DNA of 63,978 nt, the filler included, from Rhabdomonas costata (taxonomy: Eukaryota), in assembly GCA_019059605.1 (NCBI GenBank). It is 24 parts of 24 records of this genome, joined end to end, with 100 filler letters (N's around TTAATTAATTAA, not from the genome) between each part and the next. Parts side by side here need not be neighbours in the genome. Positions count along the whole stretch, not along the records: positions 2,673 to 5,236 come from JAHMHO010002806.1; 23 more parts are not named here. One strand, given 5' to 3'. A program made the translations under genes and the position numbers. Shown one piece after another: positions 2,673 to 6,187 of the stretch. The notes under the pieces were generated by a model that had not been told where the DNA came from, did no database searches, and was given only the letters and a program-made list of their open reading frames with translations. The stretch's first letter is position 1; each line of letters begins with the position of its first letter.

Positions 2673-2795
2673 TGTGGTTTTGAAAGCCCGTTCCATTTTC
2701 GGTCCGAGGGACCTTTCATGCTGGCTAGGATTCTCCGATAATAACGTGAGTTTTACATATATTTTTTTTCGCGGTTTGGCGGTTCCCTTTTTCAG

Positions 2796-3599
2796 TCGGT
2801 AACCGGCCGAAGACTTCACTTGAGTGTGCAACCGAATGACACTGTCGATGTGGTAAAGCAGCAACTTGCTCAGGAGCACCAACTGCCCGAAGGAAGCGTG
2901 AGCTTGTTCTTTGAAGGTGTGACAGTTTTTTCAGGCGCCCAACCAGTCTGTTGGACTGTTTTTTGTTGCAATGAATGAATTTCATTTTTTTTCACAGGCA
3001 AGGAGCTGTGTGGAGACTCCACTTTGAGTGATTCTTCTGTCTCTGCTGGTTCCGTGCTGTTTTTGGTGCTGCGAGCGCATGGCGGTGTGATGATGGAGCC
3101 GACTCTTCAGGTTTGTCCCCTTCCTCTCTTTTGCTCACATTCCAGGTCCCCTTTTGTATCCTACTACCCATGCGACCCCATAATATTTCCAATGTTATGT
3201 TCATCCATATACAAAAGTCCCCAGGCCTGCTTCGGCTTAGCCCTCACATTCCGGTGGTTTATGTCCATCCCCCTTATTTCATTCCTCGCTCAAGCACTTC
3301 TATTGACACCCCCCTTTTCGGCTTCGCGTGTTCTTTGTTTGCAAGTTTGGAATACCATCCTTTCGGTCGCCTTTGTAACTCTTCAGGTGTTGGCGCGAAA
3401 GTACAACTGCGACAAGATGGTTTGCCGCAAGTATGTTATTTTTCTCATTGGCCATTGTTTAGTGTCTGTTTTTGACGTTCTGTCATCGTATTCTCTTGCT
3501 ATTAGATGCTACAACCGGTTGCCTCCCCGAGCCCACAACTGCCGCAACAAAGCATGTGGCCGCAACAACAGGCTGCGCATCAAGAAGAAGCTGAAGTAA
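2796..3599 (+). CDS. RPL40: Ubiquitin-like domain fused to ribosomal protein eL40; exons 2796-2916, 2998-3110, 3387-3430, 3506-3599; first exon not identified
   Basis: GT-AG introns with consistent phases give [21 protein letters not shown]...FEGKEL...[10 protein letters not shown] followed by [53 protein letters not shown], a clear eL40 zinc-ribbon sequence. Confidence 0.92.
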
Positions 3600-6187
3600 G
3601 TGAAAATAGGTCAGGAGATGGCTCGTCGGACCAGAAGTTGCGCACGACATGTGCCCTTCGCTGTTTGGGCTGAAAACGTTGATTCTGGCCACTTGCATCG
3701 CGTCTTCTTGAAAACTCGTTGGGGATGACTTGGGCTCGGCCAACAAGTTGGTGAAATAAGAACTTTGCCACAGTGTTCAAGGCCAGGATGGCCAAAAATG
3801 ACGGGGGGGTTGCCCGAATCACGGGCCTCAAGATGTGGTCATTTGGTCTCGGACCGGGTCAGGTGGTAAAAGGCGAGACAGGTGCTCGGGGTTCCTTGGA
3901 GGGGGGGGCATTGAAAAAGACTCCCTCCACCCCTGGGAATTTTATAGCCCCGCCCACCTGGATTCCGCGAGTGTTATCGCAGTGTCAGCTGTCTAAATAC
4001 TGCGTGCCAGCTTCGTGTTTACGGTCACTAGTAGGCCGGCTTTTTCAATGTTTTTCTCGCTTTGCGTCTTTCTGCAGCAACTTTACGTTACTTGTCGTTT
4101 TTTCAAACCAAGCCTATCCGTATTCTCCCCCACAAATTGTTCGTCTTTCAGTGACCCGCAACAACAACATGGGTATTGCGGAAACTGTGAGCTGATCGTG
4201 CCGTTGGGGATCTTTTGATCTTTTGCCGGTTACATGTGCGCGCGGTTCCACACCACACAACGCAGAATACGTACGTGACGCATTTCAACCTGGATTTGGA
4301 CCCAAAATAAAATGCCATCCTCCTCAGTAGGTTGCAGTAGTATTTCTCTTTTCGGTGTTTGTGAGGTCCCCCGTACTCATCCCCATCTAGCCTTCTTTCC
4401 TTTTTGTCGTTCTCTCATGTGTTATTCTGGTGCTTGCGCCTTGGGCAGCCTCCGTTGTACATTATCTTTCTAGGTCACGCTGCTGAGTACCCGCGGTTTG
4501 GAACGGTTTGGGTTGCTACCAAAAACTAGCCGGCGGTGAACGTCATAGTTGCTGTTGATGGGGGGGGTTAAAGGAACATTGTTCCTGCAGGGAAAAAAAC
4601 CCTATTCTTGAATTGCGGCGTGGTTGGTTGTTTTTGGGGTTGAACCTCGGTTTCTCAGCACGGACGGTTTGAACCGTTAACTTCCGGCTGATCCTGGGCG
4701 CCGCTGCCCGCTCTTCTCGCTCTCTTCCCCGCCGCTCTCTGTCGCATTGTTCAACAGGCTGCTTTCACCACCGGCAGGACGTCTTCCGGAAGATTTTGTC
4801 GTTGTTTTTGTTATCGCGGCCGCCGTAGATTCCGAACCCAGGGTCCCAGTCTTCTGGCAATAAAAACGTGGCTCGGTAAGCTTGCCGTGCCCCGACGTTG
4901 TCGTTCACCGGGCCGCGGAACTTTGAACTTTGCAAAAAACACGGCCGTGTTTTTGGCGCAGCCACAGGGGCAGAGACGGAAGAATACCGCGCGCGAGGCA
5001 CGGGCGCTGCGGATGACTTACATAGGGGGCAATAAAAAATCCCGGGATGGCCCTAATTTACGGGGCTTGCGGCGAAGTTACGGCAAAGAATCGGCAAAGG
5101 GTCGAAAAATGCATCCAATGGAAAAAATGGCGCAGGCAAAAAAAAGGAAGAAAAGCCCGGGGTGCGGCAATTTCGATCTGCAACCCGCCCCTTTCGGGAG
5201 CCACAACGCCCCATTTCTGAAAACTTCCACCCAAAANNNNNNNNNNNNNNNNNNNNNNNNNNNNNNNNNNNNNNNNNNNNTTAATTAATTAANNNNNNNN
5301 NNNNNNNNNNNNNNNNNNNNNNNNNNNNNNNNNNNNTGCAAGAGGGGTTCCGGGTACCGGGTTGCGTGAAGTTGAAAGCACTGCCGCCAACAAGATACAA
5401 TAAAGAAAAAAGACAGCGAGGTTTTGCATTCGGCTTGCGTGGCATAATAGTGTGAGGTGCTTCAAACCGGCGGGGGTGGGGTCGGAACCCAGTTTAAAGG
5501 AGATGGAGAGATTGGAGGTGGAGAAGGACAGTATGGAGGGGAAAAACCAACAAAGGTTAAAGAGAAAGATAGGCAAGCGGAGGGAAGGATGGGGTTGGAG
5601 TACTCATTAGCTCCTCTGCTTAGTGTCACTTGTGTGTGAGCGTTCGTGGGAATGCCTTTTTCGGTTGTCATGTCTTTCACTTCTTCGTCGCTAGTGCGTA
5701 CTGCGTCCTTTTTTCTGCTTTTTGCGTGGCGGCTTGTTGGCTGGTATGGAAACCGATACTTTTTAAGTTGGGGTAGCGCCTTTTCCATAGATGCTTTGTG
5801 CGTGATGGGCTGTCTGTGTGTGTGGTGGGTGGGATTGAATATTGCACACTGGTCTGGACCCTACAGTCCCGCCAGAGAGACTTGAGAGACATCCAACCAG
5901 GAGGACCAGCACTGGGCCGGAGCCACCCTTGGGAGGCATTTGCAGCCGACAAGTTGGCAAGTCTAAAAAGGGATTACCTGAGGACTGAGGTATTTCCACA
6001 TCCACTGCCCATTGAATTGTTTCCCTTCCTCTTCTCAACGTTTCAGCCCATCCCTTCAGTCCCCCCGTTCCCCTTACATTGCCTTATTGATTATTTTTCT
6101 TGCCCCGCTGACAGCAAGTCAAGGGTGACAGCAAAAAAAAAATAAGTCCGTCTTTGGGCGCAACTGAGGGTCTGCTGGACACTCCGG

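Follow-up and report, generated by a model that had tools for sequence, protein, structure and literature searches.

The literature describes the ubiquitin fused to the ribosomal protein eL40 as practically invariant and cases in which it has diverged as extremely rare (PMC8122580; PMC10457151). On S27a (eS31), by contrast, divergence of the ubiquitin is said to be common, for example in Caenorhabditis and many protists (cited in PMC10457151). On L40, the account in PMC10457151, which cites Catic and Ploegh 2005, names Giardia (G. lamblia) and then two Plasmodium lineages, Vivax and Ovale. The statement that only Giardia shows this divergence is qualified in the supplementary text of the same paper, whose authors ask whether diverged UbL40 events are more widespread. 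In the Plasmodium UbL40 proteins, 11-23 of the 76 ubiquitin sites differ, and all seven lysines are kept in most species (PMC10457151). A second comparison is FUBI, the leader of eS30, which has limited identity to ubiquitin, ends in a di-glycine, has no typical chain lysines, and is removed before eS30 assembly (PMC8122580). For the canonical L40 fusion, the yeast ubiquitin moiety is reported to be needed for productive eL40 expression as a cis chaperone, a role in which SUMO partly substitutes for it (PMC6721733). Uncleaved yeast Ub-L40 precursor leads to translation-incompetent 60S subunits, and in the euglenozoan Leishmania the UCH-type enzyme DUB16 efficiently cuts the Arg-Gly-Gly/Val-Met linker of Ub-L40 (PMC12409989).

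Our analysis concerns an eL40 fusion gene of the euglenid Rhabdomonas costata. The gene sits on a 2.6-kb contig that occupies positions 2673-5236 of the window, by which we mean the whole 63,978-nt stretch of DNA analysed (GC 50.8%). A 372-nt reading frame is built from four exons, and its spliced translation across 2796-3599 is 123 aa long (Table 1). All three internal introns are GT-AG introns with pyrimidine-rich 3' ends. Taken by itself, exon 2 matches PF00240 (E=1.5e-5), and exon 5 matches PF01020 (E=1.1e-10).

Table 1. Features of the R. costata eL40 fusion locus, in window positions.
Feature	Position	Strand	Description
Intron 1, 3' part	2673-2795	+	Truncated at the contig edge; pyrimidine tract and CAG at its 3' end
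Exon 2	2796-2916	+	Leader residues 7-46 and first base of the G47 codon; 100% identical to P0001
Intron 2	2917-2997	+	81 nt, GT-AG, phase 1, within the G47 codon
Exon 3	2998-3110	+	Leader residues 47-76 and eL40 residues 1-8 (VMMEPTLQ)
Junction codons H74-G75-G76 / V77	3078-3089	+	Predicted deubiquitinase cleavage site
Intron 3	3111-3386	+	276 nt, GT-AG, phase 0
Exon 4	3387-3430	+	14 eL40 residues and two bases of the K codon that follows
Intron 4	3431-3505	+	75 nt, GT-AG, phase 2
Exon 5	3506-3599	+	Rest of eL40, including the zinc-site cysteines; stop TAA 3597-3599

The spliced translation has the same sequence as residues 7-129 of P0001, a 129-aa R. costata protein (EukProt EP00906, record RCo009287), and exon 2 used as a query returned one protein from 5 candidates, P0001, at 100% identity. 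Genes could reportedly not be predicted from the R. costata genome draft because of its fragmentation (N50 1194 bp, GC 51.6%), and the species' 39,456 proteins were predicted from its transcriptome (PMC8219788). Because the protein set is transcriptome-predicted, P0001 is evidence of expression and of all three splice junctions; the expression evidence for this gene is its identity to that transcriptome-derived protein. P0001 has its own start, MDVCIH, and the leader is untruncated. A degenerate pattern for these six N-terminal codons has 0 matches in the window, so exon 1 (six codons) lies beyond the contig edge, which is 123 nt from the first acceptor, and we take the intervening sequence as the end of intron 1. 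We rejected placing exon 1 inside these 123 nt, where an ATG at 2718 meets a stop after 7 codons and a GTGAGT at 2746 is in another frame. The R. costata leader carries two introns, one after codon 6 and one within codon 47.

No stop codon interrupts the coding frame within introns 3 and 4, so that a single open frame of 206 codons runs across 2979-3599 (+); the relatives' database proteins P0005, P0022 and P0023 resemble intron read-through calls. The remainder of the contig (3600-5236) contains five long ORFs on both strands, with no Pfam match and no recognisable gene. Across the window, an Rfam scan gave 0 matches, and tblastn detected no other copy of ubiquitin or eL40. The window (1-63978) consists of 24 contigs of ~2.57 kb in slightly decreasing length, joined by 100-nt linkers (N44-TTAATTAATTAA-N44). 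Since these linkers are artificial, contigs that stand side by side in it need not adjoin in the genome.

P0001 contains a ubiquitin domain (PF00240, 51.3 bits, E=9.9e-14, cut-off 25.4) and an eL40 domain (PF01020, 85.4 bits, E=2.5e-24, cut-off 23), and the leader abuts eL40 directly through GG/V. HMMER aligned the leader to human polyubiquitin repeats without gaps, with 28/76 residues identical by count of the identity line and 48/76 different; the reference here is canonical ubiquitin, not R. costata's own polyubiquitin. The leader keeps two of the seven ubiquitin lysines, K27 and K48, and shows R42 to S, R54 to S, H68 to F and I44 to F changes. At 28/76, this leader is not near-identical to ubiquitin, unlike the leaders of UBA52/Ubi1-type genes. 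Nor would we, by its residues, class it as ubiquitin proper, for which we considered all seven lysines, the arginines R42, R54 and R72, H68 and the L8-I44-V70 patch, a set drawn partly from general knowledge and partly from PMC10457151.

An initial annotation, made from the DNA alone, had described a gene at 2796-3599 whose intact splicing and frame argued against a pseudogene. Our results agree: exon 2 starts after a pyrimidine tract and CAG, the frame ends in the TAA at 3597-3599, and transcript support is present in that the translation equals the transcriptome-predicted P0001. Its count of 27 identities in 70 ungapped positions over ubiquitin 7-76 is the same in the HMMER identity line, and the residues it listed (K27, K48, R72 and G75-G76 kept, K63 changed to A, I44 to F, and the tail LRAHGG) are all correct. 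The eL40 part, likewise described as intact, scores 85.4 bits against PF01020.

We used AlphaFold2 with a 17-row alignment to predict the structure of P0001. Residues 1-70 of the leader were modelled at pLDDT 81-87 as strand-strand-helix-strand-strand, a beta-grasp, whereas confidence was low for the eL40 tail (pLDDT 40-55); over the whole chain the mean pLDDT was 67.0 and the pTM 0.48. When we compared the predicted leader with the PDB using Foldseek, ubiquitin chains were the top matches, with target-normalised TM scores of 0.92-0.95, an rmsd of ~1.1 A and 36-37% identity over 76 columns; NEDD8 also matched, at 27% identity. The leader is thus predicted to keep the ubiquitin fold. G75 and G76 are invariant in 17/17 aligned proteins, as are the zinc-site cysteines C97, C100, C111 and C116.

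To place the locus among euglenozoans, we searched with the eL40 part of P0001 and obtained 23 matches from 23 candidates, with the Euglena orthologues not among them. Ten of the 23 have a diverged leader in front of an eL40 beginning VMMEP, the euglenid type; three of these ten are broken or intron-read-through calls. Canonical ubiquitin leads eight, including Diplonema papillatum, where it precedes a VMMEP-type eL40. Two are of a Perkinsela type, whose leader is also diverged, two are of another diverged type, and one is an eL40-only call. Cluster look-ups placed Jenningsia fusiforme, Eutreptiella braarudii, Anisonema acinus and Heteronema vittatum among the carriers of diverged leaders. A profile search gave 2313 matches at E<=1e-10 among 3438 candidates, and the best 120 of these 2313 added Euglena gracilis P0277 and Euglena longa P0268. 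P0277 corresponds to QLA09640.1, to chain L2 of PDB 6ZJ3 and to UniRef A0A7L5NVL6, which is named 'Ubiquitin-ribosomal protein eL40 fusion protein'; the diverged E. gracilis fusion is therefore the sequence that stands for eL40 in the entry of the solved ribosome 6ZJ3. The search for euglenozoan orthologues, a check attached to the initial annotation, thus found a diverged leader on eL40 in at least seven euglenid species from six genera, and in several further records.

A HMMER search with P0001 did not inform on orthologues: the 150 matches listed are nearly all multi-domain polyubiquitin-like proteins, which dominate because domain scores add up. Using P0176 to scan metagenomes for DNA from closely related organisms, we found 14 loci, none from a close relative; by tblastn, most have canonical Ub-eL40 as their best match or consist of short eL40 pieces only. 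Two of them, L001 and L007, have a full-length identity to Diplonema Ub-eL40 of just 52-62%.

Leader and eL40 have evolved very differently in euglenids. Between genera, leaders are 26-45% identical and eL40 is 75-92% identical, and the leaders share 30-43% identity with canonical ubiquitin. Leaders are 66-78 aa long, and residues are deleted within ubiquitin positions 55-62. The same pattern is seen in closer pairs: R. costata and its nearest relative (leader 51/78, eL40 49/53), E. gracilis and E. longa (54/75, 52/53), two Eutreptiella-type records (39/73, 49/53) and two Anisonema isoforms (66/70, 54/54). A canonical pair, Diplonema and another canonical sequence, shows the reverse of the euglenid pattern, with a leader (73/76) more conserved than eL40 (42/53).

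We next tabulated ten euglenid leaders position by position, one per lineage, leaving out P0178, P0179, P0010 and broken calls. G10, K27, F44, R72, G75 and G76 are invariant in 10/10, and M1, G47, L50 and V70 are present in 9/10. At the positions that we take, from general knowledge of ubiquitin, to form the core, hydrophobic character is kept in 146/160 cells of the table. None of the ten keeps R42, R54 or K63, and few leaders keep K33 (1/10), K6 or K11 (2/10 each), K29 or H68 (3/10 each), or K48 (4/10). The residues just before the terminal GG vary among AH, LR, AR, MR, VR and VC. From this table, the fold, the hydrophobic 8/44/70 patch and the R72...GG tail appear to be constrained, and the signalling surfaces and lysines do not.

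F44 and E49 are derived states common to nearly all euglenids, and suggest a single ancestral escape from ubiquitin conservation. We base this on the two residues because a tree of 16 full-length proteins is poorly resolved, the sequences being too short; nine of the ten euglenid rows group in it (support 78/86), with Jenningsia outside. An intron within a ubiquitin repeat has been linked to weaker concerted evolution (PMC10457151). The leader may plausibly have diverged because it escaped gene conversion with polyubiquitin.

How does the euglenid fusion compare with the systems described above? With canonical Ub-eL40 (UBA52, yeast Ubi1/2, Leishmania Ub-L40) it shares the domain order, the GG/V(I) junction and a zinc-binding eL40 of 52-53 aa, and by analogy probably also processing and a cis-chaperone role; unlike the canonical leader, which is ubiquitin, that of R. 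costata is 28/76 identical to it. Divergence on S27a is the same phenomenon on another fusion partner, described as common there and as extremely rare on eL40. The Giardia and Plasmodium UbL40 proteins are alike in combining a conserved eL40 with an escaped ubiquitin moiety that keeps its predicted fold and GG. The euglenid leader belongs with these diverged UbL40 proteins and is a more extreme case: R. costata has 48/76 differences and 2/7 lysines, against 11-23/76 and mostly 7/7 in Plasmodium; the euglenid leaders have indels, unlike the Plasmodium cases; and the euglenid state spans a whole major clade, whereas that of Plasmodium belongs to recent sublineages. The closest functional analogue is FUBI-eS30 (FAU), since both are diverged GG leaders on a ribosomal protein. 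The initial annotation's label of a FUBI-like UBL-eL40 is apt to that extent; the partner differs, being eL40 rather than the small-subunit protein eS30. The likeness to FUBI is one of description; the leader's best sequence and fold matches are to ubiquitin itself.

Our data suggest that the locus is probably the normal eL40 (RPL40/UBA52-type) gene of R. costata, with a ubiquitin leader that has drifted. We think it likely that this leader is a cleavable, ubiquitin-derived aid to eL40 production that no longer supplies ubiquitin. It would descend from ubiquitin, having escaped conservation in the ancestor of the sampled euglenids and evolved fast since then. Translation of the mRNA would yield a leader-eL40 precursor, in which the folded beta-grasp leader would help eL40, a small and very basic protein that binds zinc, to be made and kept soluble. 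An enzyme of the ubiquitin C-terminal hydrolase type would recognise the hydrophobic patch (position 8, F44 and V70), R72 and G75-G76, and would cut the G76-V77 bond to free eL40 for the 60S subunit. We infer cleavage after G76 in R. costata from the invariant R72, G75 and G76 and by analogy to Leishmania DUB16; the Arg-Gly-Gly/Val-Met linker of Ub-L40 that this enzyme cuts has its counterpart here in His-Gly-Gly/Val-Met-Met. As the leader is only 28/76 identical to ubiquitin, the gene would no longer feed the ubiquitin pool. The freed leader is, judging by its residues, most likely unable to replace ubiquitin, so that cells would have to obtain ubiquitin from other genes. A cleavable carrier stripped of ubiquitin identity is the most economical reading, and the invariant leader residues would then mark the needs of folding and hydrolase recognition.

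The features retained by the leaders could also be those of a modifier: the euglenid eL40 ubiquitin may have become a separate, fast-evolving, lineage-specific protein that is activated by way of its R72-x-x-G-G tail and joined to other proteins, as the initial annotation had considered. The terminal GG, R72 and the hydrophobic 8/44/70 patch, which an activating enzyme also needs, are invariant or nearly so in 10/10 leaders, the fold is predicted to be intact, and the authors of the Plasmodium study raise the possibility of a conjugatable modifier for the diverged UbL40 ubiquitins (PMC10457151). Hydrolase recognition also accounts for these retained features, however, and R42, R54 and most chain-forming lysines are gone from the ten leaders. 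The tail before GG is variable, the length varies through indels, and 26-45% identity between genera is faster evolution than expected for a protein co-evolving with dedicated enzymes. We therefore consider a modifier unlikely; if it existed, it would be a clade-specific ubiquitin-like conjugation signal made in step with ribosome synthesis.

The initial annotation had favoured a paralogue of a normal UBA52 gene, that is, an extra, diverging copy beside an ordinary ubiquitin-eL40 gene. The very fragmentary R. costata assembly leaves room for other eL40 genes, but among the 23 candidates from the eL40-part search we found neither a canonical Ub-eL40 nor a second eL40 of R. costata, which is weak evidence against such a copy. 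In every one of at least seven euglenid species, it was the diverged form that we found; a leader shared by the eL40 genes of this many species in six genera is not a paralogue peculiar to one species. For the E. gracilis ribosome, the published work infers a single sequence for each protein and reports paralogues for eL15 alone; its main text contains no mention of ubiquitin or L40 (PMC7672448). With the diverged fusion as that ribosome's eL40 entry, this argues that the fusion is that species' eL40 gene, and we regard an extra paralogue as quite improbable. We give still less credence to the idea that the leader is a decaying relic, with eL40 either starting at the internal methionines of V-M-M-E-P or keeping its leader attached. 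The leader does evolve fast, and the window has no in-frame ATG before M78 and M79; three out-of-frame ATGs lie upstream of M78, however, and the start codon of P0001 itself is in exon 1. In Diplonema, VMMEP comes after canonical ubiquitin as well, and is thus the ancestral eL40 N-terminus rather than a new start. Frame, fold core and GG are kept in all euglenid sequences, and a leader that stayed attached would be expected to block translation factors (PMC12409989).

Retaining the cleavable carrier as our preferred reading, we view the euglenid leaders as a natural mutational scan of the eL40-carrier role, which points to the fold core and, among single positions, to G10, K27, V70, R72, GG and an aromatic side chain at position 44; other ubiquitin signalling features appear dispensable for it. 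A whole major protist clade with a strongly diverged, length-variable, folded GG leader supports the suggestion of wider escape made in PMC10457151. The euglenid sequences are already public under automatic names as ubiquitin fusions, a pipeline label that overstates the euglenid ubiquitin gene count. Within the literature covered, we found no paper describing the diverged eL40 leader in euglenids.

Diverged eL40 leaders are also seen outside the euglenids. P0181 of Perkinsela sp. CCAP 1560/4 and another record, P0013, have leaders 38-39% identical to canonical ubiquitin; compared with each other, the two are identical at 50/78 leader and 53/53 eL40 positions. From these sequences, Perkinsela, of a kinetoplastid endosymbiont lineage, appears to represent a second leader escape within Euglenozoa. 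The environmental records P0014, P0016 and P0294 also have diverged eL40 leaders, for example with a tail IAGG before VIEPTL. These records and the loci L001 and L007 suggest that UbL40 genes with a diverged leader may occur more widely than published accounts indicate.

Two PDB chains of ribosome eL40 precursors, 5xy3_m and 7pwg_m, whose organisms we take to be Trichomonas and Giardia, scored 95.7 and 69.1 bits against P0001, where canonical chains scored ~118-132; scores this low would be in line with unusual ubiquitin parts in these two chains as well. Finally, P0015 (EukProt EP00178, labelled Gracilaria changii) is a di-ubiquitin-eL40 with a VMMEP-type eL40 N-terminus. Apart from P0015, we saw this N-terminus in euglenozoans and in database records of no stated lineage; P0015 could be a contaminant transcript in the red-alga data set.
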